DNA from: a virus
Taxonomy: Duplodnaviria > Heunggongvirae > Uroviricota > Caudoviricetes
Length of the DNA stretch: 28,322 nt
Strand: one strand, 5' to 3'
Virus record (IMG/VR): IMGVR_UViG_2778261641_000008
Of this stretch, positions 2,154-28,322 are shown piece after piece. The translations under genes were made by a program, and so were the position numbers. The notes under the pieces are model-generated. The model searched no databases, was not told the DNA's origin, and was given only the letters and a program-made list of their open reading frames with translations. Position 1 is the first letter of the stretch. The number at the start of each line of letters is the position of its first letter.

Positions 2154-2157
2154 TTTG

Positions 2158-2892: not shown

Positions 2893-3082
2893 AGCACTTG
2901 CTCCTTTTCCGGAGAGGCGCTAACCTTTCACTTGCTTAGGGTAGACGGTTAGGGCCTCGGTTAAACAAAAGTGTTTTCCGGGGCCTTTCCACATCTGGCC
3001 TTCGGGTATTCCCTCCGACCATCAGCCGAAAGGCACCCGCGCGTAATCTATCGCTTTTTTGTTACTCCGGCAATTCTGCTTG

Positions 3083-3343: not shown

Positions 3344-3534
3344 AGCGACCTCCCTTAACGTGGTGTTGCCGCTATTCTAGATTGTACGATCCCTAATTCC
3401 AACTAACAGCTCGCTCTGTGCGAAGAGTGAAAATTGAACTTTCAATAGTTGTTGAACTTCCATACATCCAATGTGAAAATTCATACGTTCATAATAGTTA
3501 AAATTTAAAATATTGTATATCAGGTGAATAAAGC

Positions 3535-4557
3535 ATGGGAAGAGATATAACGCTGTACCCTAAAAAAGCAACTAGAAACGAACTTAAAAATTACCTTGAA
3601 AATTTAGGTTTTAAAAGGTGTAAACATTTGTGGGAATGGCCCCAAGGAACGTTGAATTACTCTTGGTTTGATGATACGGACTTCAAATCTACAGATGGAG
3701 TTTCGGCTGATATATATCCTGTTTCAAATGACGAATTACACATATCTGGTAATAAATGGGCATTGCATGTGCGTAATTTATATAGCGCTAGTTGGCATGA
3801 TGTAAAAATGCTTAATGATGTTCTAAAAGGCGCAAGGAGTCTTTTTGGTGGAACACTTATAGGTGATTATGGGAAAAATAGGTACGCTCCTCTATGGAAG
3901 GATTCTAGTAGTCCGATCAGTCGTGGCATTTCTTCAATATTTAATCATGTCCATCATGAGATTTCCGCTGTTAAACATGCCTTACCTGAACCTTCTATTA
4001 AATTAAACCTACCGGAAGATGGCGGTTTATCCGAATACTTTGATTACATGCAATGTATGGATCCCAGTAGAGTTATATATAATGGATTAGTACCTTTTGC
4101 GGTTGCTATGTTTGAATACTTTTTCTCTAGAGCTTTTCAAATACTTATAAAGTACGATCCTTTCGCAATAGCAAAAAGAACATCGTATAAGCAAAAAGTT
4201 GATTTTGACATTCTGCTTGAGATAGAGAAAGGAAATATTTCAATAGAAAGTGTTATTGCAAGAAATTACACTTTTCAAAACTTAACCCACCTAAACAAAG
4301 CATATAAAGAGTGGCTGGATATAGATGTGAGAGCGATTCTTTATAAGAAAAAAAGAATTGGAAAATCAGTTGATTTTCTTGAGAATCGAATTTCTGAAAT
4401 CATACAATATAGACATGGGATAGTTCATCACTTTGAGTTGGATAGGACCTTAAATCGGGATGGATATATTCATATATTAGATGCGATAGAAAAAAGCATA
4501 ATTGAATTTATCCATTACATAGAAGGCAAATACAAATTTAAATTAAATGCGTATTAA
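3535..4557 (+). CDS. Hypothetical AT-rich cargo protein (340 aa) with C-terminal RHGIVH (Rx4H, HEPN-like) motif; candidate abortive-infection or defence protein
   Basis: Single long ORF in a markedly AT-rich island. AGGTGA RBS 7-8 nt before ATG at 3535. Hairpin at 4586-4609 downstream. Not recognisable as any P2 core protein. Motif QYRHGIVHHF near the C-terminus. Confidence 0.6.
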   Translation: MGRDITLYPKKATRNELKNYLENLGFKRCKHLWEWPQGTLNYSWFDDTDFKSTDGVSADIYPVSNDELHISGNKWALHVRNLYSASWHDVKMLNDVLKGARSLFGGTLIGDYGKNRYAPLWKDSSSPISRGISSIFNHVHHEISAVKHALPEPSIKLNLPEDGGLSEYFDYMQCMDPSRVIYNGLVPFAVAMFEYFFSRAFQILIKYDPFAIAKRTSYKQKVDFDILLEIEKGNISIESVIARNYTFQNLTHLNKAYKEWLDIDVRAILYKKKRIGKSVDFLENRISEIIQYRHGIVHHFELDRTLNRDGYIHILDAIEKSIIEFIHYIEGKYKFKLNAY

Positions 4558-5944: not shown

Positions 5945-7129
5945 ATGAGTGAAACTCGTTTTCATGGTGCCCGTGTTACGGAAAATACCGACCTGGTAAC
6001 AGCGATTAACGATGTTGATTCCAGCGTTATCGGTATCGTGGCAACGGCGGATGATGCGGACGCGAAGCTGTTCCCGCTGAACAAGCCCACATTGCTGACC
6101 CGCGTCAATGACGTGCTGGGAAAATGCGGAACAACGGGGACGCTTTATCGTGCGCTTAAGGCCATCGCAGACCAGGTGAGCACAAAGGTGATCGTCGTTC
6201 GCGTGGCTGAACACAAAGAAGAAGACGGAAAGACGCAGGATCAACTGGTTATCGGTGGTTCTGAGGATGACGGCAGCTATACGGGGATGTATGCGCTGCT
6301 TGTTGCAGAGCAGGATGAAAGCATCGGATACCGTCCGCGTATTCTGGCCGCGCCGGAGCTGGACACGGAGGCTGTAACAAAATCCCTGTGCGTGATTGCA
6401 GGTAAACTGCGCGCGTTTGTGTATGCCTCATGTCACGGCTGTAACACGATGGCTGAGGCGATTACCTATCGCCAGAAATTCAACGAACGTGAGGTGATGC
6501 TCTTATGGCCGGACTTCATCGCCTACAACCCGAAAAGTGGCAAAAACGAAACGTTCCCCGCGCCTGCCTATGCGTGCGGCCTTCGTGCGTACATTGACCA
6601 TGAGCAGGGGTGGCACAAATCACTGTCCAACGTTCCGGTTAAAAATGTGCTGGGGATGTCGAGGCATGTGTTCTGGTCGTTGCAGGCCGAAGACAGCGAT
6701 GCCAACAGCCTCAACAACAAAGAAATCACGACCATTATTCGTCGCAACGGGTTCCGCTTCTGGGGCAACCGCACACCGGAAACGAACGCCTACATCTTTG
6801 AGGTGTATACCCGAACCGCACAGGTGCTGGCTGATTCAATTGCGGAAGCGCAGTTTGAAACCATCGACAGTCCACTGACGCCTGCGAACGTGAAGGATGT
6901 TATCAGTGCCATCAGGGCAAAACTGGATTCGCTGGTTACTGCCGGGAAACTGATTGGCGCGGAGTGCTGGTATGACGTGGTGGATAACGGCACCACGGAT
7001 TTACGTCAGGGGCGTGTGCGTATTCGCTACAAATATACGCCCGTTCCGCCACTGGAAGACATGGAGCTTTACCAGACGTTTACTGATGAATTCTTTGGTC
7101 CCGCATTTGCGGTGCTGGGAGGTGCCTGA
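5945..7129 (+). CDS. FI: Contractile tail sheath protein (P2 FI)
   Basis: 394 aa; the FPLNKP...GTLY...AIADQ motifs resemble P2 FI. AAGGGG RBS. Stop overlaps the FII start (TGATG). Confidence 0.9.
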   Translation: MSETRFHGARVTENTDLVTAINDVDSSVIGIVATADDADAKLFPLNKPTLLTRVNDVLGKCGTTGTLYRALKAIADQVSTKVIVVRVAEHKEEDGKTQDQLVIGGSEDDGSYTGMYALLVAEQDESIGYRPRILAAPELDTEAVTKSLCVIAGKLRAFVYASCHGCNTMAEAITYRQKFNEREVMLLWPDFIAYNPKSGKNETFPAPAYACGLRAYIDHEQGWHKSLSNVPVKNVLGMSRHVFWSLQAEDSDANSLNNKEITTIIRRNGFRFWGNRTPETNAYIFEVYTRTAQVLADSIAEAQFETIDSPLTPANVKDVISAIRAKLDSLVTAGKLIGAECWYDVVDNGTTDLRQGRVRIRYKYTPVPPLEDMELYQTFTDEFFGPAFAVLGGA

Positions 7130-7641
7130 TGGCTGTACCAAAACATCTTCGCTTTTTTACGTTGTTTGTGGATGGTGAAAACGAAGTGGGTAAAGTGACA
7201 TCCGTCACGCCGCCCAAACTGACGCGCAAAACCGACAGCTATCGTGGTGGTGGCATGATGGGGGCGGTAAGTATTGATCTCGGTCTGGACGACTCCGCGC
7301 TTGATGCGAGTTTTGTTATGGGGGGCGCTGTTCGTGCGCTGTTCCTTAAATATGGCGGCACGATTGACGGCACGCTGCTGCGTTTTGCGGGTGAATACTA
7401 CACCGATGCAGAAAGCGATCTGTATGAAATCGAGATGCGCGGACGTGTGACGGAAATTGATATGGGGGAAGCCAAACAGGGCGAAGCCACATCACACACT
7501 TACGCTGTCAAAAACACCTACTACAAGCTGAGCGTTAACGATCGCCCGCTGTGGGAAATCGACCTGTTGAACCACATCTACCGGAAGGACGGCAAGGACA
7601 TTGTGCCTGACCGTATCCGTTCCGCGCTTGGGCTTGGCTGA
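7129..7641 (+). CDS. FII: Tail tube protein (P2 FII)
   Basis: 170 aa; SVTPPKLTRKTDSYRGGGM...RFAGEY...EIDMGEAKQGE matches my recollection of P2 FII. Confidence 0.9.
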   Translation: MAVPKHLRFFTLFVDGENEVGKVTSVTPPKLTRKTDSYRGGGMMGAVSIDLGLDDSALDASFVMGGAVRALFLKYGGTIDGTLLRFAGEYYTDAESDLYEIEMRGRVTEIDMGEAKQGEATSHTYAVKNTYYKLSVNDRPLWEIDLLNHIYRKDGKDIVPDRIRSALGLG

Positions 7642-7696
7642 TAAGTAATATGCAGGCGGCGCAGTGCGTCGCCTCTGACTGAAAAGGAGACAACTG

Positions 7697-8071
7697 ATGA
7701 AAGACATCGATACTGAAACCCGGAATAACACCGTGGCGGATGATGTGACGGCAGGTGAGGATATGGCTGTCGAACGTGGCGTAAAACTGACCCGACCAAT
7801 TGAGCGTGGTGGCGAAAAAATCACGTATGTGGAGATCACCGGGGCTATTGAGCAGGCTGGATCCCTGCGTGGTCTGTCGCTGTCTGATGTGCTGAATCTG
7901 AAAGCGGATACCATGTTCACGCTGTTGCCTCGCGTGACCTCGCCACGACTGGATGAAGTGATGATTAAAAAAATGTCGTCACGCGATTTTATTCAGTTGT
8001 GCGCTGTGGCTGTAAATTTTATGAGCGAGCCAGACTCTGGCGCGAAGAGCGTGCAGGAGACGGCAGCGTAA
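7697..8071 (+). CDS. E: Tail assembly chaperone (P2 E)
   Basis: 124-aa ORF between tail tube and tape measure, with an overlapping -1 frame ORF downstream. Confidence 0.75.
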   Translation: MKDIDTETRNNTVADDVTAGEDMAVERGVKLTRPIERGGEKITYVEITGAIEQAGSLRGLSLSDVLNLKADTMFTLLPRVTSPRLDEVMIKKMSSRDFIQLCAVAVNFMSEPDSGAKSVQETAA

Positions 8072-8235
8072 TCACCCTGGTGTGCTTTGAGCACATCGAA
8101 GATCTGGTGGCGGATATTGCCGCCATTTTTAACTGGTCGCCCGCCGAAATCTTCATGATGACGCCCGGCGAAGTGGTTAGCTGGCGCGAGCGGGCGGCAC
8201 TTCGCAGCGGGAATGCAGATAATGAAGACTCTTGA
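8017..8235 (+). CDS. E' extension reached by programmed -1 frameshift from E
   Basis: The -1 frame is open from 7969 to the stop at 8233-8235. An in-frame X_XXY_YYZ heptamer A_AAT_TTT lies at 8014-8020. The post-shift reading FYERARLWREE matches the track ORF 7999-8235. Confidence 0.55.
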   Translation, partial: FYERARLWREERAGDGSVITLVCFEHIEDLVADIAAIFNWSPAEIFMMTPGEVVSWRERAALRSGNADNEDS

Positions 8236-11029
8236 TATCCGGGTCGCTTTCAGCGCCGTTGACAGGCTGACCCGGCCTGCCGAAAACGCCCGCCGCCTGA
8301 TGGGGCAGTTTGGTGACTCCATCCAGCGAACGCAGGGGGCGCTCAAAAATCTCGAGCGTCAGGCGCGTTCATTTGAGCGCGCCCGTGACGCTGTCAGTAA
8401 AGCGGATGCGGGCATCGTGAAAGCACGACGCCAGCTTAACGCCCTTAATCAGTTACAACGCACGGGTACAGTGCTCAGCGAAAAACAACAAAAGCTGATG
8501 CAGCAGTTAAGCACCCGGCTTGAACGCCTGAATGAATCGCGCACACGGGAAATTCAAAAAATGCGGGAGCTTGGCGGAGAGCTGAAACGCCACGGCATTT
8601 CCCTGACAGGCAGCGATAACACCATCCAGCAGGCCATCAGACGCACCGAACAGTACAACAACCAGCTTGAACGCGAACGGCAGGCGCTTGCGCGTGTAAC
8701 GCGGGCGCGTGAGCGGTATTCGCGCGCGCAGGAAACAGCGGGAAAACTGAAAACAGGTGGTGCACTGGCAATTGGTGCGGCAGCGGCGGGCGGCTATGCT
8801 GCCGGGCGTTTTTTGCAGCCTGCGATCGGGTTCGGCAAAGAGATGTCCCGCGTTCAGGCACTGACGCGAATCGACAAAAACAGCCCGCAGTTTAAGGCGC
8901 TGCGTGAGCAGGCGTTAAAACTTGGCTCTGAAACACAGTTTACTGCGAGTGATGCCGCCAGTGGGCAGAGCTTTCTGGCAATGGCTGGTTTTACTCCGCA
9001 GGCCATTCAGGCCGCATTGCCCGGTGTTCTTAATATGGCGCTGGCAGGTGGCGTCGAACTCGGCGAGACGGCTGATATAGGCTCCAATATCCTCACACAG
9101 TTCAACCTGACAGCCGATCAAATGGACCGGGTTGGCGATACGCTGACAGCGGCATTCACCCGGACCAATACTGATTTACGCGCGCTGGGCGAAACCATGA
9201 AGTATACCGGTCCGGTTGCCGCAAAACTTGGTATCAGTCTTGAAGAAGCGGCAGCCATGGCCGGGATGCTTGCCAATAATGGTCTTCGCGGAAGCGATGC
9301 TGGTACGGCCATGCGCGCAAGTCTGTCCCGCCTTGCATCACCGCCAAAAGCTGCGGCTGATGCGCTGAAAGAGCTGGGAGTGTCAGTTGCTGACGCCAGA
9401 GGCAAAATGCGCCCGATGGAGGATGTGCTGCTTGATCTCTATAAGGCGACACAAAAATACGGACAGGTGGACCAGGTTTCCTTCTTCAAGGACATCGCCG
9501 GAGAAGAGGCGTTCGTTGGTTTGCAGACGCTTGTTGCGGCGGCTGGTTCAGGAGAGCTGCAAAAACTGACCAGAGAATTGCAGGGGGCAAGGGGAGAGGC
9601 CGATCGCGTCGCAAAAGTAATGGCCGATAATCTTGATGGGGACCTGAAAAATCTCGATAGCGCATGGGAAGGTCTTCGTATTCGCATCAGTGATCTGGTT
9701 GACGGTCCGCTGCGTTCTGTCACGCAGTGGCTCACGCGGGTGCTTGAAAAAAGCACCTCGCTGGCGCAGGCCCATCCGGTACTGACGCGCCAGCTACTGA
9801 TAGCAGGCGGTGCGTTGCTGGCAATGACTGCAACGATTGGCTCGTTGTCGCTGGTTATTGGGGTGCTTTACGGGAAGCTGGCCACCCTGCGTCTTGGTTT
9901 TGACATTCTTACCCGGTCAATGAATGTCGTCAGGGTGTTGCCTGCGCTGTGGGGAATGGTGACGGGTTCCGTTTCTTTGCTGGGAGGCGCTATCGGGGCG
10001 CTGTTCAGTCCGGTTGGTCTTATCGTGGCTGCGCTTGCCGGAGCTGCCGTTCTTATCTGGAAATACTGGGATCCCATCAGGGCATTTTTTGCCGGGGTGT
10101 TCGGCGGGATTATGGAAAGGCTGACCCCGTTGCGTGAAACCTTTGAACGGTTTGGTCCTGTTTTTGACGCAATCGGAAGCGGGATCAGCCAGGTGTTTAA
10201 CTGGTTTAAATCGCTGCTGTCACCGATGGAGTCCAGCAAGGAAACGCTGGATAAATGTACCAGTGCTGGCGAGATATTCGGTAACGTTCTTGGTGGCGCG
10301 CTACAGCTTGTTCTGACGCCTGCAAAAATGTTGCTGGATACGCTGGCGTGGATACTTGAAAAACTCGGTGTGCTTCCGGATGAAGCGGAAAGGGCGAGAA
10401 AGAAAATCGAAGACGCACAGCGTGCGGCCATTCTTCAGGACAAGGTTGCTCTGTTTCAGGGAGACATTGCGAAAATCAATCCGCCGAAGTCTGCGGAAAA
10501 TGGCAATGGCACCGGAGGCGATAAACCCAAAGACAACAAACCGCTCACAGACAGCAATACCGGCACGCTACGCAGACTCAGCAAAATTGCTGATAACACA
10601 GGTAAGCTGGTTGATGAGACAAAAAAACGTATTGGCCCCGGCGATATTGTCTTTAAGAACCTGCCCCGCGCACTTGCTGTTCGTGGGGAGTGGCAGGAGC
10701 GGAAGATTGCGCAGGTCAGTAAGCCTGCTTCCGCAATCAACATCACACCCGTGGTCCCGGCTCTGCTGCCTCCGGCGCTGGTCCCTGTTGTTGCGGCCAG
10801 CTCCCGCCCGGTGGCGGAGGCCATACGATCGCCAGTGGCATCAGTTCCTGCAACTTCCCGTAACCGGGAGCCTGTTGTCTCCGGATTTGGCGGTGAAATT
10901 CATGTTCATCTGCATAACGTTGTTACGCAGAATCCCCGCGAACTGGCGAAACTGGTCGGTGAAATGGTCAGGGCAGAGGTGGAACGGCGTGCTCGTGCCG
11001 GACGTGGCAGTTTTTACGATAAAGATTGA
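8213..11029 (+). CDS. T: Tail tape measure protein (P2 T)
   Basis: 938 aa; coiled-coil N-terminal half, Gly/Ala-rich hydrophobic middle segment, position between E/E' and U. Confidence 0.9.
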   Translation: MQIMKTLDIRVAFSAVDRLTRPAENARRLMGQFGDSIQRTQGALKNLERQARSFERARDAVSKADAGIVKARRQLNALNQLQRTGTVLSEKQQKLMQQLSTRLERLNESRTREIQKMRELGGELKRHGISLTGSDNTIQQAIRRTEQYNNQLERERQALARVTRARERYSRAQETAGKLKTGGALAIGAAAAGGYAAGRFLQPAIGFGKEMSRVQALTRIDKNSPQFKALREQALKLGSETQFTASDAASGQSFLAMAGFTPQAIQAALPGVLNMALAGGVELGETADIGSNILTQFNLTADQMDRVGDTLTAAFTRTNTDLRALGETMKYTGPVAAKLGISLEEAAAMAGMLANNGLRGSDAGTAMRASLSRLASPPKAAADALKELGVSVADARGKMRPMEDVLLDLYKATQKYGQVDQVSFFKDIAGEEAFVGLQTLVAAAGSGELQKLTRELQGARGEADRVAKVMADNLDGDLKNLDSAWEGLRIRISDLVDGPLRSVTQWLTRVLEKSTSLAQAHPVLTRQLLIAGGALLAMTATIGSLSLVIGVLYGKLATLRLGFDILTRSMNVVRVLPALWGMVTGSVSLLGGAIGALFSPVGLIVAALAGAAVLIWKYWDPIRAFFAGVFGGIMERLTPLRETFERFGPVFDAIGSGISQVFNWFKSLLSPMESSKETLDKCTSAGEIFGNVLGGALQLVLTPAKMLLDTLAWILEKLGVLPDEAERARKKIEDAQRAAILQDKVALFQGDIAKINPPKSAENGNGTGGDKPKDNKPLTDSNTGTLRRLSKIADNTGKLVDETKKRIGPGDIVFKNLPRALAVRGEWQERKIAQVSKPASAINITPVVPALLPPALVPVVAASSRPVAEAIRSPVASVPATSRNREPVVSGFGGEIHVHLHNVVTQNPRELAKLVGEMVRAEVERRARAGRGSFYDKD

Positions 11030-11035
11030 GGAGTC

Positions 11036-11530
11036 ATGGCCATGATGATGATCTACGGCATGTTTGTTTTTGAGCTGCGCACATTGCCGCATCAGCAGTT
11101 ACAGCAAAACAAAAGCTGGCGGCATGTGAAAAATGAACGCGTTAACCGTTCAGCAAGCTGGCAGTATATCGGCGCAGGTGATGATCGCATCGTGCTTTCC
11201 GGCGTGCTTTATCCTGAAATTACAGGTGGCGAAGTGTCGCTTTCGTTGCTGACCACACAGGCATATACAGGACGCCCCTGGCCTCTGATTGATGGTGTCG
11301 GGCAGATTTACGGCATGTATGTACTGACTGAAACGAATACGACCCGTTCCGAGTTTGATCGCTACGGTAAGGCGAAAAAGATAGAATTTTCACTGACCCT
11401 TGAACGCTGTGATGAGGATTTGCGGGAGCGTCTGCAATCCTCATCGTTCAGTGATATGCTGTCCGGCTTCAAAGATAAGGTCACATCATCCCTTAACAGC
11501 GCGGCCAGTTCAGTTAAAGGACTGTTCTGA
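11036..11530 (+). CDS. U: Tail protein gpU
   Basis: 164 aa; MAMMMIYGMFVFELRTLPHQ...WRH...GVLYPEITGG..WPL..G resembles P2 gpU. Confidence 0.85.
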   Translation: MAMMMIYGMFVFELRTLPHQQLQQNKSWRHVKNERVNRSASWQYIGAGDDRIVLSGVLYPEITGGEVSLSLLTTQAYTGRPWPLIDGVGQIYGMYVLTETNTTRSEFDRYGKAKKIEFSLTLERCDEDLRERLQSSSFSDMLSGFKDKVTSSLNSAASSVKGLF

Positions 11531-11626: not shown

Positions 11627-12805
11627 TTATAAAGAATTGCTACTTTCTAATTCTGGGTTTCTGGATCTATTTTTACAACCTAAATCCGAGTGGTAATTCG
11701 GTATATCGTTTGTCAAATCTTGTTTGATAGCATTAATTAAGATCATTATGTCGAATTTATGCATATCGTCGCCCCCTTCAGACCTTAGATGTTCGGATGT
11801 GGTGAGTTGAGTCGCTAATTTGCTGTTTGGCCCCCACACAATATTATTTTCGAATTTTCCTTCATGCATTCTGTTATTATATATACAGTATTGTCTAATG
11901 TTTAATGCACTGGCTAAATGTACAATGGCAGTATCTACAGTTATAACAAAATCAGCATGGCGAACCAATGCAAATGAACATCCGGCATCAGAAAATGGAG
12001 ATAGAGACACATTATCCAATCCATTGTGATTAATCTGTTTTCCCATATTAAAAACTATTGTGTGATATCCCTTAAGGTTATTAAGGTAAGCTAGTACTTT
12101 GTTTATCTGTTCATCAGATAAGGTTCTGCTATTCTGAGAGCCATAAGGGTTAAATATAACTAATTTTTTGTTTTTCTTCCTGAATTCATTTGCAACAATA
12201 TTTGCTGGTTCATATATTTTGTTGTCAAAATTAAGCGCTGCAGCATAATTATTATTTTTTATCTTTAGTAAAGATAAAACTTTTTTCATTCTTTCAGATG
12301 TGTGAATGGAACGATTATCGATTATATTTGTATCAAAAATAGTTACGGCAGGATGATTAAAACAGATAGAGTGTTTAGGTCTAAGTAAATGTAGTGTTTG
12401 CAATCTGGTTATCGCTGTGTTATCAAAATTTGAGAAGTCAACAACAAGATCTACATTCAGTTTTTTTATCTTTGCTTTTAGTTCGTTAAATTTATTTTTC
12501 TCGTAAGATATAAAGGCATCCACGCCAACAATATCAGTAAAGAGGAATGATACTCTTGAAGGTGCTATCACATATACCACCATACCGGATTTTTGAAGTT
12601 GTTTAATAAACCCTGAGGTAACGATGCCGTCACCAATGGCTTGCATGTGCATGAAAATGCACACTGTTTTATAACTATCCGGCTGTAATGATGTTTTCCT
12701 TCTGTATCGCATTTTTAGAAATGCCAGTCTGGCCTTCGTCTTTATCTTTTTTGTTTTAATATTTCGCTGTCTGTTAAGCTGTTTTAATGATGAAATAACA
12801 TTCAT
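11627..12805 (-). CDS. Glycosyltransferase family 9 (LPS heptosyltransferase-like) protein; AT-rich cargo
   Basis: Track ORF is 11627-12865 with a TTG start; ATG candidates at 12835, 12805 and 12712, start unresolved. N-terminal KTVCIFMHMQAIGDGIV and C-terminal FVITVDTAIVHLASALN resemble the WaaC/WaaF-type signatures (SSMGDV and VDTGLSHLAAAL). Confidence 0.65.
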   Translation of the reverse strand: MNVISSLKQLNRQRNIKTKKIKTKARLAFLKMRYRRKTSLQPDSYKTVCIFMHMQAIGDGIVTSGFIKQLQKSGMVVYVIAPSRVSFLFTDIVGVDAFISYEKNKFNELKAKIKKLNVDLVVDFSNFDNTAITRLQTLHLLRPKHSICFNHPAVTIFDTNIIDNRSIHTSERMKKVLSLLKIKNNNYAAALNFDNKIYEPANIVANEFRKKNKKLVIFNPYGSQNSRTLSDEQINKVLAYLNNLKGYHTIVFNMGKQINHNGLDNVSLSPFSDAGCSFALVRHADFVITVDTAIVHLASALNIRQYCIYNNRMHEGKFENNIVWGPNSKLATQLTTSEHLRSEGGDDMHKFDIMILINAIKQDLTNDIPNYHSDLGCKNRSRNPELESSNSL

Positions 12806-12899
12806 AATGGTACCCTGAAATTCCAAATCACACATGTCATCCGAAATGAGCAGGGTACTATACAAAAAACTGGACTACAATGGTTTGAAATGAAAGCCT

Positions 12900-13499
12900 T
12901 TATGCTTGTTTACTCCTTGATTCCACTGGGGAAGCTGGCCACTCAATATCCGGTGCTCTTGATGTATCAACACGGTTCAGCAGCACTCGATACTTCTTCC
13001 AGGCTTCCAGCAACGAGATTTCTTCCTCCGTTGCGATTTCCAGATCTACAGCATCCTGAAGTGGCGCAATATGCTCACTGGCTACCTGCATCAGGCTGTT
13101 TTTTGTTTCTTCTGCCTCCCGGATCCGGAACAGTTTTTCTGCTTCCGTATCCTTCACCCAGGCTGTGCCGTTCCACTTCTGATATTCCCCTCCCGGCGAC
13201 AACCAGGTAACATTTTCCGGTAACGGACCGAGTTCAGAAATAAATAACGCGTCGCCGGAAGCCACGTCATAAACCGTTTTACCACGATGATCTTCAACGA
13301 GATGCCAAGACGCCCCATCACTGTTGAAAACAGCCACGAAGCCAGCTGGAATATCTGGCGGAGCAATATCAGTACTATTTGCAGGCAGACCTGTATGAGG
13401 TGGAATGTATGCATCACCTTCACCAATAAATTCATTGGTTCCGACCAGCAGATTATAAATTTTTATGGTTCGTGGTTGTTCACTCATTCTGAATGCCAT
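12900..13499 (-). CDS. G: Tail fibre assembly protein (P2 G / Tfa family)
   Basis: 199 aa immediately downstream of the tail-fibre fragment; sequence typical of tail-fibre assembly chaperones. Confidence 0.8.
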
Positions 13500-14611
13500 T
13501 ATGCAAGCCTCACAATATAGTTAAATGCGATGTTTTTTACGGTGTTTTCCGCGTTGCCATAAGCGGCAATGGTAATGGTGTGTGTGTGCGAACCAATAGC
13601 GAGCGTATGTGTATGCGCACCTATTGCTACTGTGTGAGTATGAGCTCCTGCGCTTAATACGCGATTACTTGCTGTCTTGCTTGTGTTAGTTGCATGCATT
13701 CCACCACCGGTACCGGGAGTTTCTGCGTATGCTGAAGTATTGTTGTAAGCAAAGTTGTGTGTATGTGCTCCGGTGTTATTTGTGGATTTAGTTCCGTAAT
13801 CAAACGACGATGTGGTTTTCGTCCCCAAATCCGTACTGGATGCGCTGGCGCTGTGGGTGTGCGATTTAATGCCGTCCTGTTCCTGAGACAATACGGCCCG
13901 ACCACTGGCAGGTTTGCCCTTAATCGTCCAGCCACGCATATCAGGGATCACGCCTGACGGATAAGCGACTGCAAGTTTCGGGTAGGCAGATTTGTCAAAA
14001 GTCTGCCCCTGCATCAGGGCATAACCAGACGGAACGGTATCCGATGGCCACGGGATTGGTGCGCCAGGCGGATAAAACTGCTCTGATGGCGTATAGAGTG
14101 AATAAACTGTACCGTCCGTTAACCCTTCCGGCTTATTAGCAGAATATGCTGGTGACGGATGAATCGTTACGCTGGCATTACTGGTATAATCCCATTGAAT
14201 ATTTACACCAGTCGCATAATTTCCGATTGCAACGTAAATATCGTAAGTATCACCAGATGTATTGACCCAGGCAAAATTTGTAAACCCTGCCGATGTGCGC
14301 TGCCATAAAGCACCAGTAATCCCCTTCGGATTACCATTACCTGCACGCAAAACAATTTCAGATATACCTGCCTGTTGAGGTGAACCGACGTTATATCCAG
14401 CGCCACCAATCAACGTAATTGAAACAACAGAACTCGCCTGTGGCATGGTTACCGTTGCTAATTTGAACCAACCAGCACCACCTCTGAATGACATTGTTGT
14501 TGAGTTAAGCGTACCAATATCTTTCGGTGTCAGTGTTATATCCGCTGAAAGCGCCTTACCATTCACCTTACGGGCAGAAGGTAACGGTTTTAAATTTTCG
14601 TGTTGTGGTAC
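13499..14611 (-). pseudogene. H: C-terminal fragment of tail fibre protein (P2 H-like); N-terminal part missing
   Basis: The frame opens at 14611 with no credible start (track start 14566 is GTG). C-terminal GAHTHT repeats ([24 protein letters not shown]). The upstream neighbour is truncated O rather than the baseplate genes. Confidence 0.7.
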
Positions 14612-14958
14612 TCATGCTTAATCGTCCGGATACTGGAATAGATTTTCTTGCCGTCAGCGACAAGCTGCTTCATGCGCTCGGTCGGTTCGATTTCTGCATA
14701 CAGCGCAGTACGTCCGGCCAGCGGGCCTTCCGTAATATCTTCCGTACTCAGCGCGGTGACATCGCCCATTGCGGAAAATTCGCTTGACGGGCATGGCGAG
14801 AGATAGTGCTCAACGTTCACGCGGGCAGCGTAAACATCCGGGTTGAAGTTCTCGGCGGCTTCACGCAGATGTACCGGGCTGATTTCGCGGCCATCAACAG
14901 TTGATCCGGAGACAGCCACGCGAAACTTTTTGCGGAATGTCTTTTTTTCATTAGCCAT
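14590..14958 (-). pseudogene. O: N-terminal fragment of capsid scaffold/protease gpO, about 122 of the roughly 280 aa expected
   Basis: MANEKKTFRKKFRVAVSGSTVDGREISPVHLREAAENFNPDVYAARVNVEHY parallels the P2 gpO N-terminus as I recall it. The ORF ends after KKIYSSI plus 12 unrelated residues, directly beside the tail-fibre fragment. Confidence 0.7.
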
Positions 14959-15112
14959 AGTTTTTGCCCCTCTGACTGGTTCTTCAGTCATGATGGCAAA
15001 GCGTAACAGGCTGATACAAAGGGCTTTTGTTGTAAGAAAACGGCCAGAACAGGGGGTTAAGGAGAACGGTTTCGCGCGCGGGTAATCTTCCTGTAATTAC
15101 TCAGGGGGAGCA

Positions 15113-17960: not shown

Positions 17961-18363
17961 GACTCTCCAGCTCCTGTATCAGTCAGATAATTTCACGACG
18001 CCTTCCAGTTTATCGCCACCATCGACAGTCAGACTCTTACGCAATCCCACCGCGTTGACTGCATGTTCTCGCCGTCTCAGTGCGATTTTGACGGCCTTAC
18101 CTTTCACCCCATCAAATCAAAAGCCCTCACGTCTTTTTCACGCTCAGCGTGAGAAATACAACCATTCTGTTGTATCTCTGCGACATCGTTCAAGGAATGC
18201 TATTTACCCCCTGAAACGCGGGCTGTTCCCCCGTCACCTGCGCGCAGAAAAAACGCGTTTTTTTGTGCACGTACGGATCCTTGACGGATCCAGCCACCAC
18301 GCGGGCCGGAAGTACAAAAAGTCGTTCAAAAAAATTGTGCAAACTTGTGCACTATCGTGCAAA

Positions 18364-18388
18364 CAAAAAAAGCGCCTTATCGGCGCTT
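18364..18388 (-). terminator. Rho-independent terminator for the 18397-18666 gene
   Basis: On the minus strand, stem AAGCGCC/GGCGCTT with a 5-nt loop is followed by T7 (complement of A-run 18364-18370). Confidence 0.65.
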
Positions 18389-18396
18389 CAAAAGTA

Positions 18397-18666
18397 TCAA
18401 TTGTTGCTGTGTATTAATCGCCAACCACGAACATATGCTTCATAGGCATCTCTGTGCCTTACAGTTCCAGCCTGGCTAAACGGAATGTTAGCTAAAACTA
18501 AATCATTCTGAGCCATAGCGCGTCCTTCAAGCGCATCTTTTATGCCTAGCTCAAAAGCACAGGCAGCGCATTTGTGCCGACCTTCTTGTCCTTGATATTC
18601 AGGGAGAGACAGAAATGTTGGATTATAACGATGAGGGTTCTTGCAAATACCTGTTTTAGCCCGCAC
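18397..18666 (-). CDS. Hypothetical small protein (89 aa) with its own terminator
   Basis: ORF is followed at once by a terminator. Contains Cys/His residues (CKNPH...HKCAAC). Not recognised; the start codon is uncertain. Confidence 0.45.
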   Translation of the reverse strand: MRAKTGICKNPHRYNPTFLSLPEYQGQEGRHKCAACAFELGIKDALEGRAMAQNDLVLANIPFSQAGTVRHRDAYEAYVRGWRLIHSNN

Positions 18667-18785
18667 TTTATTTACCTCATAGGAAAAATATGCGTGCCTT
18701 TACAGAGGTGCGTGTAAGCAATAAAATATACGACGCACATTTTGATTTACTTCGGAAGGCACGCATATCAGGTTAAGTGAGTCCG

Positions 18786-18815
18786 ACCGAGTTTTACGCC
18801 CCAATAGTTGCTGCT
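18786..18815. repeat. 12-bp-stem perfect hairpin (ACGCCCCAATAG ttgctg CTATTGGGGCGT) followed by TTT
   Basis: Read directly from the sequence; in the noncoding stretch between the 89-aa gene and parR. Confidence 0.6.
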
Positions 18816-19030
18816 ATTGGGGCGTTTTGCATGGACAATGCCGCGCAATTATCTTGTCGCTCACAATGCGAACGATCTTACAAAAAGGCACATTACTGTC
18901 AAGATAATTGATCGTTTTAATCGATAGATAATAGACAATCTATTTGTTTAACAGATCGATTATTGAAGTAAGTGTGCCAAGTGGAATGATACTGTCTCTA
19001 TAAACGTGAGCATTTTTCGCGCAGATGCTT

Positions 19031-19342
19031 TTACTCAGGAAATAACGCCCGGATATTCCCAGCCATCTGGCTGGTTATCTTAGCCACTGGTGCAGACTGT
19101 GCTTCAAACTTTTTTGAGCTGATTTGTGTCACAGGTAACATCTCATCATCAGCCCATGCGGCCAGTCGGTAAGCCTCTGCCGGATTCGTCTTCAGAAGTG
19201 CCAGCCCGGCCAGAAAAGCCACGCGTTGGCCGCTTTTGCGGGCTTCTGGTGTAAGGCTGTCCAGCCAGGCGCATGCTTCTCCTTCGTTCTTGACGGCAGC
19301 TGGCTTCAGATAGAAACTTATCCGTCTGGTTGGTGTTGTCAT
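19031..19342 (-). CDS. parR: ParR-like ribbon-helix-helix centromere-binding adaptor
   Basis: ATG at 19342 with AAGGAG 6 nt upstream, 5 nt after the parM stop. N-terminus MTTPTRRISFYLKPAAV...RVAFLAGLAL resembles my recollection of plasmid R1 ParR. Confidence 0.65.
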   Translation of the reverse strand: MTTPTRRISFYLKPAAVKNEGEACAWLDSLTPEARKSGQRVAFLAGLALLKTNPAEAYRLAAWADDEMLPVTQISSKKFEAQSAPVAKITSQMAGNIRALFPE

Positions 19343-19346
19343 TGGT

Positions 19347-20306
19347 TTACTCCTTGTCCATTGCGTACAGCCCATTAACCAGAGCAAACTGTGGCACCCC
19401 GTCCGCGATGAAAGTCGCATTAACTCCGCAGGCTTCGCGGATAGCGGGTGCCACAATCTCCGCCCCGCCACCGACAACCATCACCCGCCCGTAACCCGAA
19501 AAACCCGCCAGCGCGCGGATCACGCGTTGTTTCAGTGTTTCTTCCTTTTCACGAATAACCACCATCAGGCTGTCGTAATGCGCGTCATTGTGGATGTGCT
19601 GGCGCAGCCAGGCTTCATCATGGCGATGTTCGATAATGGTATTGGCGATGTGGTGACTGGTACGCATACCGTTAGTGGCCATCACCGACAGTACGGCATC
19701 GGCCATCAGGGAAACGCCTACGTGTGGATCGCAAAACACCTGGCTGATACCTGCCAGTTGTCCCTGAACCTTTGCCACATCCAGCGTGGTTCCGCCTAAA
19801 TCCACAATCAGCAGGGATTCAAACGGACTCATGTCAGCCAGTGCTTTAAAGCCAGCCGGAATGGATTCAGGCATAACCCGTACGTTACGGATAGTGAATG
19901 CTTCGCCGTTCTGGTACTCCACCGGGCGCATGACGTTCGCTTTTTTGCGGTTGATGTTGGCCATGTCCGGCTGTGCGTTTGTGTCGAAATATTCGCTCAG
20001 TGGCAGGGTGACAACCACATCCACTTCCTGTGGTGTGATGCCTGATTTGACCAGCGCGTGATGAATGGCAATGACATTCACATCGCTGTACTGGTATTGC
20101 GTGTCGGTCGTCTGGACAAAGCGATCGCTGACCGGATCAAAACCATAGCGCACGCCATCAAGCATGTAGTTCGCGGGCTGCGTGCCACCGAACGGCGCAG
20201 ACCATTCCGACTTGAAGCTGTTCGGGCTGATGGCGTTGCGGCGTTCGCCGTTCTCAGTCCATGCCAGCTTGATGTTGGTGGAGCCGTCATCGATACAAAT
20301 TTTCAT
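19347..20306 (-). CDS. parM: ParM/StbA actin-like segregation ATPase
   Basis: 319 aa with IDDGSTNIKL, ISPNSFK, YSDVNVIAIHHAL, DLGGTTLD, VVGGGAE and LVNGLY, the characteristic ParM motifs in the right order. Confidence 0.85.
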   Translation of the reverse strand: MKICIDDGSTNIKLAWTENGERRNAISPNSFKSEWSAPFGGTQPANYMLDGVRYGFDPVSDRFVQTTDTQYQYSDVNVIAIHHALVKSGITPQEVDVVVTLPLSEYFDTNAQPDMANINRKKANVMRPVEYQNGEAFTIRNVRVMPESIPAGFKALADMSPFESLLIVDLGGTTLDVAKVQGQLAGISQVFCDPHVGVSLMADAVLSVMATNGMRTSHHIANTIIEHRHDEAWLRQHIHNDAHYDSLMVVIREKEETLKQRVIRALAGFSGYGRVMVVGGGAEIVAPAIREACGVNATFIADGVPQFALVNGLYAMDKE

Positions 20307-20338
20307 GTCGCTTTTCCTTATGTTGATTAATTAATCGC

Positions 20339-20373
20339 TTACGGGATTCTGAAATCCCGTTTTTGCCTGTTTT
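20339..20373. repeat. Copy 1 of a 35-bp hairpin element (TTACGGGATTCTGAAATCCCGT + T-rich tail), between A stop and parM start
   Basis: 8-bp stem ACGGGATT/AATCCCGT followed by TTTTTGCCTGTTTT. A perfect 12-bp palindrome GATTAATTAATC at 20325-20336 is adjacent. Confidence 0.8.
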
Positions 20374-20382
20374 ATGCGCGCT

Positions 20383-23205
20383 TCATATATCGCGGCGCGT
20401 TTTTTGCTCATTTACGGGATTTGTGAATCCCGTTTCTGTCTGTTTTTTGTTTCCACTGGTCAGGCCACCCCGCAGCAGGTCTGCTTTGCGGCGGGCGTGT
20501 TCAGTGGTTTCACTGATTCTCTGTGCGTGCTCTGCGTCGCGGATGGCGCGCAGCATGTCAGAAAGCACGGTAACGGGTGTTTTCATGGTGTTCTGGTCCT
20601 GCTGAAGTGTGGATGCCAGGCGTGCGGCGGCTTCGGGGTCTGATGCCCCCAGCTGTTCCAGATAGCTGGCGACCGGGTTATGGCGGATCTCCGTGCTGCT
20701 TACGCCGTGGTTACGGCTCAGGCGCTGCCAGAGCTGCGTGATCCGGCTGTCCGGTCGGGTATCCGGTTTGCGTACAATTTCAAATCCCTGCGGTGCAATG
20801 ATGCTGCCGTCGACGTACAGACTGCCGCCCCGTAACAGGTGCTGCATCTGCTGTTCACCGATATGCAGGCCGAGAGATTCAGCAGACTCCCGCCATTCTT
20901 TAGCGAGTAACTCGTGGTTATCAGGCAAAGGCCGTGGCTGTTTGCGGCTCTGTGTCCAGTTCTGCATTTCATCACTGCTGTTTTTTGCCTGTTTGTCACG
21001 CAGCGAACGCATCAGCGCCCGGCGTTCGTGCCGTTTCAGTGAGCGCATCCATTCATTCACGTCAACGCCGTCAGGAAGCTGCGGCCACGGTGCTGGCCGT
21101 TCTTCCAGCTGTTCTGTCCCGTTGTTGTCCGTTTCCTGTACACGGGGACAGTTATTGCCACGAGTCCAAGGGGCGGCAGGGCCGCCCTGAAGGTCAAAAC
21201 CATTTTCGCGGGCGCTGTCTTCCGCTTCCGGTTTACGTCTTACCAGCTTCCAGTTATCCGGATGTGTGCACACACGGGAAGACTCCCCGATGAGCGGTGA
21301 CCAGATCCCGTAAATCTGTACGCTCTGTTCGCCGTAATCGTTCAGCTCATCTGCGAGGTCGTAGGCGGTGCGAATCAGGTAGTCTTTGCGTGGAACAAGT
21401 ACGCCGCCCTGTTTTTCAATGTAGGAGGCAAAACACCCGGCATCAGCGGCAGCGAGCACTGCATCCATTGCGTCATCCTTCAGTCGTTGCGGGCCTTCCG
21501 GGTTGCGTGCCATCTGGCTGGCAAGGCGGCGCAGTTCACGCCACACCTGACGGGAGGGGATGCCAAAGAACTGGAACTGGCGGACCCGGTGAAGGCGCGC
21601 CCAGCCGATGGCGCGCTCCACGCTCTCGGCCATTGATTTTCCGGTTTCGTGGTCAACGCGTGGCTTGCCCGTTTTCGGGTCGATACCATCCACGGCGCGG
21701 CTGTCCAGGTTCTTTCCGATGTAGGTGGCGATGTAGCTGGTTGGCGTGCCTTTTGAGCCGTCGACGTACTCCGCCTTAAAACGCGGAGTTATGTCATCGC
21801 CCAGCTCGTGGCGGTCTTCCTGAATGGCAATATCGCAGACGTGGGACACGATGGTTTCAATCTCGTCCGGATGTGCAAAGACCATCATATGCCAGTGCAC
21901 AGTGCCGTCATGGTGAGGCTCCACCGTGCGGATGCCATACCAGCGAAGACCGTCGCGGTTCAGTTTTTTGCGGACCGCCGCAAAAAACGTGTTAACCAGG
22001 TAATCGCTGGAGTCGCGCATGGTGGCCCCGTTCCATTTGGGATTCGGATGACCGTTCTCTGTTGTGGCGTGGTATTTTGACGGGCAGGTGACAGTCAGAA
22101 ACACCGCTCTGTCGCCACGGGCTTCGGCCAGAAGTTCCAGTCCCTTCATGGTGGCCATCATTTCTGCCTTACGGTGAACCGGGTTACTTACTCCCGCGTA
22201 ATATACCGTCTCGAGATCAATCGTGAACCCGTCTTCATTTTCCAGCATGAAACTTTTCAGGAAATCGCGTGTTTTCTCGCGCTGTGCGCGAAACTCGCTT
22301 AACGCGTCCTGGCTCAGATAGGGTGATGTTTTTCTGGAAACCAGACAGGCGGCGCGGAGTTGTTCTTCTCTCCACTCGCAACGTAACAGCCACAGTTTGC
22401 GTTTCCACCATTCCGCACAGGTCAGGCGAAGGATTGCGCCCGGCAGCAGCTCCGTGTCCGGTTCGTTCCTCCGGTCTTTGTCTGTTGTCAGTGCGTCATA
22501 ATGTGGAGGCATGGCGTGCAGGTGTAACGCCATGCGGGCCAGCATCTGATACGCCTTCAGCGTTACATCCATGGTCAGTTCGCCATCAGTAGCGCCAAAG
22601 CCATCGCAGAGTTTTTCGAAGGTGCTGCTGAACATCGCCGCCGTCATGGTGGCCAGCGTCTGTATCTGGTGTTTGTTGAGCTGCGGCAGGTAAAGCAAAT
22701 CGTCCAGGCGTTCGCGTCCGGCAAGGGAGCGATAACCCGGTGTCAGCCAGCGGTGATCGGTGCGGTCCAGACGTTCGAATATTTTGCGCAGGGTTCCGCG
22801 CGCGTAGCGTTCCGCCTGCCAGCTCTTTTTGCCTTTCTGACGATCGGCTTCCTGCTTCTTGCGCAGGAAGGAGAGGTGGCGAATAAGCGGATCGCGCAGA
22901 TAGGACGGCAGCAGGCGCAGCGAGGCCATGGCTTCATCCACCGCGCCGCGTGCCTGTTTTCTGGCGTCTCCTGCCAGTGTGATGGTTTTGTCCTGTTTTT
23001 CCTGTGCGTCCAGGCTTTTATTAATCAGGTTGCCCAGCGGCGTGGCGGAGAACGCCGCATCAGCCATTTCCTGGCGGCGCTCGTTCTCTACCCGGTAGGC
23101 ATCCAGCCAGGAGGAAAGCGCGGATTCAGGAGCGGAGATCCCCGTTCCTTCACGCCCCACTGCGTGGCGCGGTTGTTGCCAGTCCCTGATGTACTCTGCC
23201 GTCAT
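20383..23205 (-). CDS. A: Replication initiation endonuclease (P2 A, rolling-circle HUH family)
   Basis: 940 aa with the HUH-type motif TVHWHMMVFAHP; position downstream of the early operon as in P2. Confidence 0.85.
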   Translation of the reverse strand: MTAEYIRDWQQPRHAVGREGTGISAPESALSSWLDAYRVENERRQEMADAAFSATPLGNLINKSLDAQEKQDKTITLAGDARKQARGAVDEAMASLRLLPSYLRDPLIRHLSFLRKKQEADRQKGKKSWQAERYARGTLRKIFERLDRTDHRWLTPGYRSLAGRERLDDLLYLPQLNKHQIQTLATMTAAMFSSTFEKLCDGFGATDGELTMDVTLKAYQMLARMALHLHAMPPHYDALTTDKDRRNEPDTELLPGAILRLTCAEWWKRKLWLLRCEWREEQLRAACLVSRKTSPYLSQDALSEFRAQREKTRDFLKSFMLENEDGFTIDLETVYYAGVSNPVHRKAEMMATMKGLELLAEARGDRAVFLTVTCPSKYHATTENGHPNPKWNGATMRDSSDYLVNTFFAAVRKKLNRDGLRWYGIRTVEPHHDGTVHWHMMVFAHPDEIETIVSHVCDIAIQEDRHELGDDITPRFKAEYVDGSKGTPTSYIATYIGKNLDSRAVDGIDPKTGKPRVDHETGKSMAESVERAIGWARLHRVRQFQFFGIPSRQVWRELRRLASQMARNPEGPQRLKDDAMDAVLAAADAGCFASYIEKQGGVLVPRKDYLIRTAYDLADELNDYGEQSVQIYGIWSPLIGESSRVCTHPDNWKLVRRKPEAEDSARENGFDLQGGPAAPWTRGNNCPRVQETDNNGTEQLEERPAPWPQLPDGVDVNEWMRSLKRHERRALMRSLRDKQAKNSSDEMQNWTQSRKQPRPLPDNHELLAKEWRESAESLGLHIGEQQMQHLLRGGSLYVDGSIIAPQGFEIVRKPDTRPDSRITQLWQRLSRNHGVSSTEIRHNPVASYLEQLGASDPEAAARLASTLQQDQNTMKTPVTVLSDMLRAIRDAEHAQRISETTEHARRKADLLRGGLTSGNKKQTETGFTNPVNEQKTRRDI
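20412..20446. repeat. Copy 2 of the same hairpin element, inside the last codons of gene A
   Basis: TTACGGGATTTGTGAATCCCGTTTCTGTCTGTTTT, about 30 of 35 positions identical to copy 1, spaced 73 bp; it encodes the TGFTNPV residues of the A C-terminus. Confidence 0.8.
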
Positions 23206-23880: not shown

Positions 23881-24057
23881 GGTGTGGCCCCTTGTGTAGT
23901 AAGTTGTGAAAACTCACCATCCAGAGCTGCGAAACTGTGGGTGGCGAGACGTACGAGGTTCGCAGTACCGGCTACACAAGAACCCGGCCCGACCGAAGTC
24001 GGCCCCGTACGCCCCGCCATAATTCTGACGCGAAAAAAACGTGGCAATACAGTACGC

Positions 24058-24080
24058 ACAAAAAAACCGCTGGCGCGGTT
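24058..24080 (-). terminator. Rho-independent terminator within the early region
   Basis: Minus-strand stem AACCGC/GCGGTT with loop, followed by T7 (complement of A-run 24059-24066). Confidence 0.5.
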
Positions 24081-24202
24081 GTGCGCTTGTGTAGTCAGCA
24101 GGCTGCGAAACCCGGCACCCGTTTTGTGAGGTGCAGCGGAAATGTAACCTGACTGATTGCGGCATGGCAAGCGGTTTTTTTGTGTGTGCATGTTCTGGTT
24201 TC

Positions 24203-27221: not shown

Positions 27222-27317
27222 GGCCAGAAAACTGGTTAGACCTGCTTTTTGTCTGGTCTGATTATTGCTGGAAAGAGGCTGGAGAAATTGTAGAGCGGTT
27301 CATTGGAGGGCTTCGTA

Positions 27318-28322
27318 ATGTCGATTAAGAAGCTCGAAGATGGTCGTTATTTGCTGGACATCAGGCCGAACGGACGCAAGGGAAAGCGCGTGCGTAAGGT
27401 ATTTGACAAAAAATCGGTAGCGGTGGCCACTGAACGCTACATCATGGCGAACGCTGAAAAGCGGGAATATATACAGGGCTACCGTGATCGTCGAACGCTA
27501 AATGATTTGCTTGAGTTGTGGTGGATGTATCACGGCCAGCACAGGCGTAAGGCGGAAGAAGACCGAAAACAACTGCGCAACATAATCAATGAGCTTGGCG
27601 CTGATATGCAGGCTGTGGATCTTGATAAGCTGAAAATTATCGCGTGGCGTTCTCAAAAGATAGCTGATGGATTGAAACCGTCATCTGCTAACAGGTACAT
27701 GAATCGGTTATCCGGAATGTTTACCGTGCTGAAAAAAATAGGTCTTTGGGATGCAGAACATCCAGTAAGGGGAATTTCTATTCTTTATGTATCTCCACGA
27801 GAAATGGCGTTCCTGTCACAGAAGGAAGTGGCGCTATTGCTCGATACACTGGAGGGCGACTACTGGCGTGTTGCGCTTTTGTGTTTAAGCACAGGGGCGC
27901 GCTGGAGTGAAGCTTGTAAGCTTCGTGGTGAACAGATAGTTCATAACCGTGTAACGTTTCTTGAAACCAAAAATGGCCGGAAGAGAACAGTGCCAATTTC
28001 GCAGGCAGTTTGTGAGGCGATCAAAACCAGAGAAACAGGCGGCTTGTTTGAGGTGAAGTACCGGGAATTCTGCCTGGCGCTGAAAAGAGTTAAGCCCGAT
28101 TTACCAAAAGGCCAGGCTGCACATGTGCTGCGGCATACGTTCGCCAGCCATTTTGTGATGAACGGAGGAAACATTATTGCGCTTCAGAAGATTCTTGGTC
28201 ACGCAACCATTCAGCAAACAATGGCATATGCGCATTTTGCACCGGATTACCTGCAGGATGCGGTGGCCCTTAATCCGCTGAAAGGTGGCGTAAGTGTCCA
28301 CGCAGTGTCCACGGGGGATTAA
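27318..28322 (+). CDS. int: Tyrosine integrase (P2 Int family)
   Basis: ATG at 27318 with GGAGGG 7 nt upstream. MSIKKLEDGRYLLDIRPNGRKGKR...LSTGARWSEA...HVLRHTFASHF...LGHATIQQTMAYAHFAP parallels P2 Int. The stop codon is the last three bases of the window. Confidence 0.9.
   Translation: MSIKKLEDGRYLLDIRPNGRKGKRVRKVFDKKSVAVATERYIMANAEKREYIQGYRDRRTLNDLLELWWMYHGQHRRKAEEDRKQLRNIINELGADMQAVDLDKLKIIAWRSQKIADGLKPSSANRYMNRLSGMFTVLKKIGLWDAEHPVRGISILYVSPREMAFLSQKEVALLLDTLEGDYWRVALLCLSTGARWSEACKLRGEQIVHNRVTFLETKNGRKRTVPISQAVCEAIKTRETGGLFEVKYREFCLALKRVKPDLPKGQAAHVLRHTFASHFVMNGGNIIALQKILGHATIQQTMAYAHFAPDYLQDAVALNPLKGGVSVHAVSTGD

Follow-up and report, generated by a model that had tools for sequence, protein, structure and literature searches.

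We analysed a stretch of viral DNA of 28,322 nucleotides (IMG/VR record IMGVR_UViG_2778261641_000008; hereafter the window), which holds an integrated, partly deleted P2-family prophage of the P88-like group (Xuanwuvirus). Directly behind gene A of this prophage, which encodes its replication initiator, lie parM and parR, the genes for the two proteins of an actin-type DNA partition system, and two palindromic repeats precede parM. The features of this locus are as follows.

20383-23205, minus strand: gene A, encoding a rolling-circle replication initiator of 940 amino acids (aa; Pfam Phage_GPA, 2e-129)
20412-20449, minus strand: distal 38-nt repeat with a palindromic box at 20414-20433, within the 3' end of gene A
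20339-20376, minus strand: proximal 38-nt repeat with a palindromic box, ACGGGATT-N4-AATCCCGT, at 20341-20360
20315-20331, minus strand: a ATTAATCAA box (20323-20331) and an AAGGA ribosome-binding site (20315-20319), just 5' of parM
19347-20306, minus strand: parM, encoding a 319-aa actin-fold partition ATPase of the R1/StbA family, from a phage-specific clade
19031-19342, minus strand: parR, encoding a 103-aa adaptor whose N-terminal DNA-binding domain is joined by a variable linker to a conserved C-terminal helix

The ParM and ParR proteins

Consistent with a type II partition ATPase, ParM matched both ParM domains in Pfam (StbA_N, 1.8e-82; ParM C-terminal domain, 2.9e-68), and the nucleotide-binding motifs DDGSTNIK, MPESIPAG, DLGGTTLD and GGGAE were all present and intact. 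Residues 2-316 matched the R1 ParM structures 1mwk and 4a62 in the PDB over the full length (E = 1.6e-92), and PHROG 691, annotated 'partition protein', matched at 4.7e-90; a search of NCBIfam gave sub-threshold ParM matches only. BLASTP aligned the protein with ParM of plasmid R100 at 47% identity, again over the full length. The first-pass annotation of this DNA had described an R1-type ParM/ParR module. The R1-family pair proved genuine in these searches, and the similarity of ParM survived a real alignment, but the label 'R1-type' has to be qualified, given the 47% identity of ParM, its place in a phage-only clade and the difference between the repeats in front of it and the 11-bp iterons of the plasmid. 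The same annotation had set the two genes, of 319 and 103 codons, on the strand of gene A with 5 nt between them. Lengths, order and strand all stood, and the parM stop codon and the parR ATG are separated by 4 nt. The gap between gene A and parM is 76 nt.

Encoded directly 3' of parM, ParR has the features of the small DNA-binding adaptor of such systems, with matches to Pfam Plasmid_stab_B (9.8e-24) and PHROG 2515 (2.3e-59); a sequence search of the PDB with ParR gave no match. Its N-terminal 56 residues are 34% identical to those of R100 ParR, and residues R6, F10, L12, P14, R40, A42, G46 and N96 are invariant in the alignment of the two proteins. The last of these lies in the C-terminal NIRALFPE, which aligned with KKNAMKLIN of R100. 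In R1, the C-terminal peptide of ParR is the part that binds ParM. In all ParR proteins of the phage clade, an N-terminal RR(I/V)SFYLKP strand leads into helices, a hypervariable linker and a C-terminal motif, N-(I/A)-x-x-(L/F)-F-P, which is kept in every one of them. An AlphaFold2 model of the monomer was of low confidence (predicted local distance difference test score, 56.7), too low for a fold search, and we used its secondary structure alone: helices at 20-29, 32-52 and 54-61, disorder at 63-85 and a helix at 87-100.

Alleles of the two genes were compared in 86 related loci of the E. coli type (L001, L009-L013 and L031-L110); a scan of IMG/VR yielded 99%-identical copies only and served for allele statistics, not for diversity. 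The parM reading frame was intact at 319 aa in 85 of the 86 loci. The ratio of nonsynonymous to synonymous substitution rates (dN/dS) of parM was 0.02-0.2, so that the gene is under strong purifying selection. ParR occurred as 46 different sequences in at least three allele families, next to ParM proteins that were 97-99% identical. The RRISFYLKP beta-strand, which reads the DNA, was invariant over the 46 alleles. The N-terminal domain of parR was under purifying selection (dN/dS 0.04-0.33), and the linker evolved in a nearly neutral manner (0.8-0.9). In one allele family the synonymous divergence (dS) of parR reached ~0.8-0.9, compared with 0.11 in the adjoining parM, and the alleles have therefore been exchanged by recombination at the parM/parR border.

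The palindromic repeats upstream of parM

The first-pass annotation had noted hairpin-containing repeats 5' of parM, and these resolved into the two 38-nt copies listed above, which are 82% identical, lie 73 bp apart and each contain a perfect 8+8 palindrome, ACGGGATT-N4-AATCCCGT. The proximal box is centred ~52 nt 5' of the parM ATG, and the distal box overlaps the last ~22 codons of gene A. When we scanned the 28-kb window for the palindrome, allowing up to three mismatches, only two matches were found, both upstream of parM, against a chance expectation of 0.16.

This layout is shared with relatives in Plesiomonas and Hafnia, in which ParM is ~62% and gene A 33-55% identical to those of the window. 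Each has exactly two GGG-N10-CCC boxes, at -131/-59 from the parM ATG in Plesiomonas and -128/-55 in Hafnia, compared with -125/-52 in the window, which gives spacings of 72, 73 and 73 bp, respectively; the 72-73 bp spacing is kept in loci L002 and L003. The inner sequences of the boxes differ among the groups. In Hafnia the distal box lies within a different upstream open reading frame (ORF), and the boxes therefore travel with parM, not with gene A. A string of the form ATTAATCAA..TAAGGA follows the proximal box in the window, Plesiomonas and Hafnia groups, and its ATTAATCAA box is a possible -10 element. The Serratia/Enterobacter group has an inverted repeat of another kind. The proximal repeat is a candidate ParR operator and centromere half, possibly overlapping a -35 element, and the distal repeat is a candidate for the second half.

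The palindromes might also act as nucleic acid structures. Across 84 loci, however, no compensatory changes were found in their arms, and we rejected a required RNA or DNA stem-loop on this ground; the fold z-score of -4.7 obtained for the palindrome RNA is an automatic outcome of repeated palindromes. Because polymorphism without compensation argues against a required stem-loop, protein-binding sites are the favoured interpretation of the boxes. A terminator function was likewise rejected, as the palindromes are terminator-like on the plus strand only, where nothing needs terminating. In the parC site of R100, which we used as a control, C/A-rich 11-bp direct iterons form two clusters around a TTGACA promoter, and no iterons like these were found in the window. 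A centromere of two palindromes, that is, of four half-sites, is nevertheless plausible for ParR by analogy, since srpC, the experimentally defined centromere of the srpMRC partition system of the SXT/R391 integrative and conjugative elements (ICEs), has only four 13-bp repeats (PMC4489591).

A scan for consensus promoters 5' of parM gave no site, a result that is uninformative because the scan also misses the known parM promoter of R100. From gene A to parM the minus strand has no predicted intrinsic terminator; the first good one after gene A, at 18389-18369, lies past an 89-aa ORF downstream of parR.

Core module and variable cargo in P88-like prophages

A 2.2-kb region of the window shares 95-100% identity with Escherichia phage P88, Citrobacter phage PhiSM and other Xuanwuvirus (Peduoviridae), and the linkage of parMR to gene A extends well beyond these phages. 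In every relative examined, down to a ParM identity of 54%, parMR directly followed gene A, with 0-2 small ORFs in between. ParM proteins at least 54% identical to that of the window were found in six genera (Escherichia, Salmonella, Plesiomonas, Hafnia, Serratia and Enterobacter), and those of the last four, which are 54-63% identical, were all in P2-like prophages with the gene order int-C-cox-...-A-(0-2 small ORFs)-parM-parR-cargo-(ogr)-portal-terminase. The order int-C-cox-...-A-parM-parR-cargo-portal was also seen in E. albertii and Salmonella. In a scan of 28 loci, a GPA gene adjoined every ParM that was at least 53.6% identical and none that was 52% identical or less, and the latter were located in an ICE, an integrated plasmid or plasmid-like contigs. 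Consistent with this division, the gene-A-linked proteins formed a single clade of 21 tips in a neighbour-joining tree of 127 ParM proteins, with no ParM from a plasmid or ICE inside it; the nearest plasmid ParM proteins are at most 53% identical. Thus, parMR is a conserved core module of P88-like and related P2-family phages, not hotspot cargo. The module is present at this position clade-wide in the P88-like phages and their diverged relatives. Of 384 phage records with a replication protein of the GPA type, the 14 P88-like ones alone carry this ParM. The gene A product is ~31% identical to gpA of P2, and its 940 aa compare with 785-907 aa in diverged relatives that bear parMR.

What varies is the segment that follows, which lies outside the partition module and has these features in the window.

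18362-19030, minus strand: variable cargo segment between parR and cos
18397-18666, minus strand: 89-aa orphan ORF, PHROG 3941, function unknown
18902-18875 and 18389-18369, minus strand: promoter-like site and terminator of the cargo segment

Over 72 loci the interval between parR and the portal gene measured 1.0-4.2 kb and contained HicAB, a KAP NTPase or orphan ORFs. The segment in the window does not align with the complete relative L009 and is covered by only 166 of the ~1300 E. coli genomes that match the 2.2-kb region, and a protein search with the 89-aa ORF returned two clusters only, both 99% identical. On the opposite strand, a promoter-like site at 18699-18727 is followed by a strong hairpin with a 12-bp stem and a T-run (18796-18830); these signals could specify an RNA of ~100 nt antisense to the 5' leader of the 89-aa ORF.

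In P2, tin and old are located between gene A and cos, and the first-pass annotation had implied that parMR is accessory cargo of this type. That status does not hold, as parMR is fixed after gene A across six genera and the variation lies between parR and the portal gene; parMR shows neither the variable presence nor the similarity to defence proteins of tin/old-type cargo. PADLOC, run on ParM and ParR as well as on the 89-aa ORF and gene A, gave no match. What corresponds to the tin/old hotspot is the parR-portal interval rather than parMR.

The element itself is an integrative P2-family prophage with the cassette between gene A and the portal/cos end, as had been recognised in the first pass. 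Besides an integrase, the window carries Cox, a terminase, a portal protein and, in the C repressor position, a helix-turn-helix protein.

27303-28322: integrase

Compared with L009, ~10 kb is missing (window 14053->14629 corresponds to L009 10711->20670). The lost genes are most of the tail fibre gene and those for the baseplate, tail completion, lysis, head completion, small terminase and capsid, together with part of the scaffold gene. This defective copy still has intact gene A, parM, parR, integrase, terminase and portal genes.

Other features of the window were noted in passing. In the early region 5' of gene A, Rfam gave matches to C4 antisense RNA, a family known from P1/P7 immunity, at 23937-24024 (minus strand, 83 bits) and to the Hfq-binding small RNA isrK at 24060-24134 (minus strand, 64 bits), and early-gene control is therefore not simply P2-like. 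Two islands of low GC content (0.33-0.40) hold cargo. The one at 1260-4557 encodes a VasI-family protein, associated with type VI secretion (1260-2153; PhiSM likewise lists a VasI-family ORF), a zinc-ribbon protein (2158-2490) and a 340-aa protein with a weak RiboL-PSP HEPN match (3535-4557); the one at 11627-12865, adjoining the tail operon, encodes a 412-aa protein with a weak glycosyltransferase-9 match. In P88-like phages, the sheath-tube-tape-measure operon lies on the strand opposite to the other late genes (5945-11530 versus 12900-14991 in the window; also in L001, L009 and L010), and a DNA invertase with inverted tail-fibre segments is found at the junction of the opposed late operons. 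An Rfam match to IS009 (12958-13156) falls inside the tail-fibre assembly gene of the window.

Possible roles of the cassette and its known counterparts

Of 5426 complete E. coli genomes, ~1300 contained a match to the 2.2-kb region, and ~5600 sequences belong to the two main protein clusters. An integrase was present in all full contexts examined, the window included, and the setting is thus an integrated prophage rather than an autonomously replicating low-copy replicon. Nor is it that of a phage-plasmid, which is extrachromosomal and usually lacks an integrase, with one circular exception of 34.5 kb, pZ1323PEC0009-2. Two further candidates for an episome were rejected: 'Escherichia phage 520873' proved to be a linear contig that contains host yecA and IS100, and a 26.7-kb 'plasmid' of Shigella boydii is a linear prophage fragment. 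Very large 'plasmid' records of 228 kb-1.4 Mb (NZ_CP110658.1, NZ_MK439959.1, NZ_CP114132.1, CP054248.1 and CP061244.1) also contain P88-like parM, parR and gene A, as either prophages in megaplasmids or mislabelled pieces of chromosome. A search of E. coli genomes for attP junctions gave no usable answer, because every circular record is itself broken at its start.

We propose that parM, parR and the two boxes form an intact type II (actin-type) partition cassette that acts on extrachromosomal phage circles replicated by gene A. We put the probability of this reading, which rests in part on analogy with characterised systems, at roughly 55%. We infer that the cassette is expressed and works only during an extrachromosomal phase, either from infection to integration or after excision or induction. 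In that phase, rolling-circle initiation by the gene A product would make monomeric double-stranded circles, and gene A is likely to be the source of the circles on which the cassette acts. P2-type replication gives monomeric circles, which are the packaging substrate. The position of parM and parR directly behind gene A, on the same strand and without a predicted terminator in between, would place them within this scheme. ParR dimers would bind the two GGG-N10-CCC boxes to form a small centromere and would probably also repress a local promoter, and the C-terminal helix of ParR would capture the ends of ParM filaments. By pushing sister circles apart, the filaments would spread them in the cell so that they reach both daughters and are not lost or clumped. 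The phage may benefit through inheritance of the circle before integration or after excision, in the manner of srpMRC, or through lytic replication and positioning, in the manner of the AlpAC actin-adaptor pair of prophage CGP3. The suggestion in the first-pass annotation of an episomal stage, or of another role in DNA positioning, appears reasonable on the sequence.

Several observations weigh against partition of gene-A-replicated circles. The P2-type immunity repressor shuts off gene A; in an immune cell a non-integrated circle would therefore go unreplicated and leave nothing to partition. Of the 1452 places matched in complete E. coli genomes, 1450 are on the chromosome, and any episomal phase must therefore be transient or rare. 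The window prophage has no capsid, baseplate or lysis genes, so that its own cassette cannot serve a productive phage cycle. Finally, the boxes are polymorphic within the E. coli group and show no clear excess of conservation over the sequence around them, and two boxes are far below the ten iterons of R1 parC, to which they are unrelated in sequence.

One alternative is that the cassette organises the lytic phase only, with ParM filaments positioning or dispersing the replicating circles so that replication and packaging improve, and with no role in inheritance or in the stability of the lysogen. The location immediately behind the replication gene, on the same strand and with no predicted terminator, suits this idea, as do the precedent of CGP3 AlpAC, the use of monomeric circles as packaging substrate and the fact that P88 and PhiSM are active, inducible phages. 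However, most P2-family phages, P2 included, replicate well without parMR, as the count of 14 in 384 GPA-type records illustrates. We regard an exclusively lytic role as unlikely but worth keeping in view, since the sequence data do not separate it from the partition of circles. It is less probable again that P88-like phages persist for many generations as low-copy plasmids maintained by parMRC. P88 was recovered in the phage-plasmid screen of Pfeifer et al. 2021, in which its partition genes were flagged and both episomal and integrated states were suggested (PMC7969092), and pZ1323PEC0009-2, a circular record of 34,461 bp deposited as a plasmid, comprises an entire P88-like genome, integrase gene included. 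Such a circular contig would be explained equally well by induced, replicating phage DNA, whereas the other small 'plasmid' and 'phage' records are linear fragments or contigs with host genes, and the constant presence of integrases together with the chromosomal location makes a stable plasmid lifestyle unlikely.

Exclusion of incoming replicons was another role considered in the first pass. A part in defence or exclusion, for example through partition incompatibility, would fit the location between gene A and cos, the site of tin and old in P2, as well as the unusual polymorphism of ParR described above. We consider it very improbable, and the proposed exclusion received no support. Apart from the negative PADLOC scan, the module is conserved in diverged phages and it is the adjoining segment that varies; the DNA-reading strand of ParR and the boxes do not diversify, and both ParR and the boxes are unrelated to their IncF plasmid counterparts. 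That the genes are a decaying relic of an old recombination between plasmid and phage, without current function, is scarcely credible. The window prophage is defective and some database copies are truncated, but the selection on parM (dN/dS 0.02-0.2, with 85 of 86 frames intact) and the linkage across genera down to ~54% protein identity contradict decay.

We see about an even chance that ParMRC is a long-standing core function of this P2-family branch, which about a quarter of complete E. coli genomes and several other Enterobacterales carry, and that it provides either an actively partitioned episomal phase or actin-organised rolling-circle products, with a minimal two-palindrome centromere unlike any characterised parC. 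Partition systems are treated as a hallmark of plasmids, and classifiers of plasmids and phage-plasmids use them as markers; P88-type parMR should be taken as a sign of neither a plasmid nor defence cargo. With an active cassette, integrative temperate phages, like the SXT/R391 ICEs, would be investing in the segregation of transient circles, and P88 or PhiSM would offer a simple E. coli system for actin-driven positioning of phage DNA and a very small natural centromere for study.

The partition genes of P88-type phages have already been annotated and interpreted along the same lines. RefSeq records of Xuanwuvirus list a 'plasmid segregation protein ParM' and a 'partition protein', and a PhiSM gene was listed by Magaziner et al. 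2019 as a plasmid stability/partitioning protein (PMC6456863). The paper on P88 reported induction from the chromosome by mitomycin C and did not discuss the partition genes, and our searches of the literature turned up no functional study of P88-type parMR. Our analysis adds the clade-level picture of a core module, the architecture and allele mosaicism of ParR and the conserved two-box candidate centromere. P88, PhiSM and other Xuanwuvirus share with the window a ParM that is 98-99% identical, the position after gene A and the upstream boxes, whereas the window copy is a deletion derivative that has lost ~10 kb and carries other cargo after parR.

The ParMRC (StbAB) systems of R1 and R100 agree with the window in protein families, gene order, ATPase motifs of ParM and the presence of repeats 5' of parM, and the N-terminal domain and C-terminal ParM-binding motif of their ParR can be aligned with those of the window protein. 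By contrast, the middle segment of R1 ParR is absent from the window ParR, R100 parC is built of 11-bp direct iteron clusters instead of two 20-bp palindromes 73 bp apart, and the replicon is a low-copy plasmid instead of an integrating phage with a phage-specific ParM clade. The only other phage record with this ParM family is the P1-like phage-plasmid D6, a 91-kb plasmid prophage whose StbA-type ParM is 47.8% identical and groups with plasmid ParM proteins, outside the P2-linked clade.

Closer parallels in lifestyle come from other integrating elements. Expressed only around the time of excision, the srpMRC system stabilises the ICE in its excised form (PMC4489591). It resembles the window cassette as an actin-type partition system on a normally integrated element that uses a rolling-circle (HUH-type) initiator when excised and has a small centromere; SrpM and SrpR, however, have only a distant relationship to ParM and ParR and belong to an ICE, not to a phage, and srpMRC lies in an operon with int under SetCD control, whereas the window cassette follows the replication gene. 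AlpAC of the Corynebacterium prophage CGP3 is an actin-adaptor pair that is induced early and needed for efficient replication of the excised circle, on which it acts (PMC4446434). With its alpS site (PMC4446434, PMC5539076), it shares with the window an integrated prophage and an actin-like protein with an adaptor that binds 5' of its own operon, but it differs in actin-like family, host phylum and phage type, and its replication role is experimental, whereas the window cassette is known from sequence. In architecture and context, with an actin-like ATPase, an adaptor and a few upstream repeats on an integrating element, the window cassette fits systems of the srpMRC and AlpAC kind.

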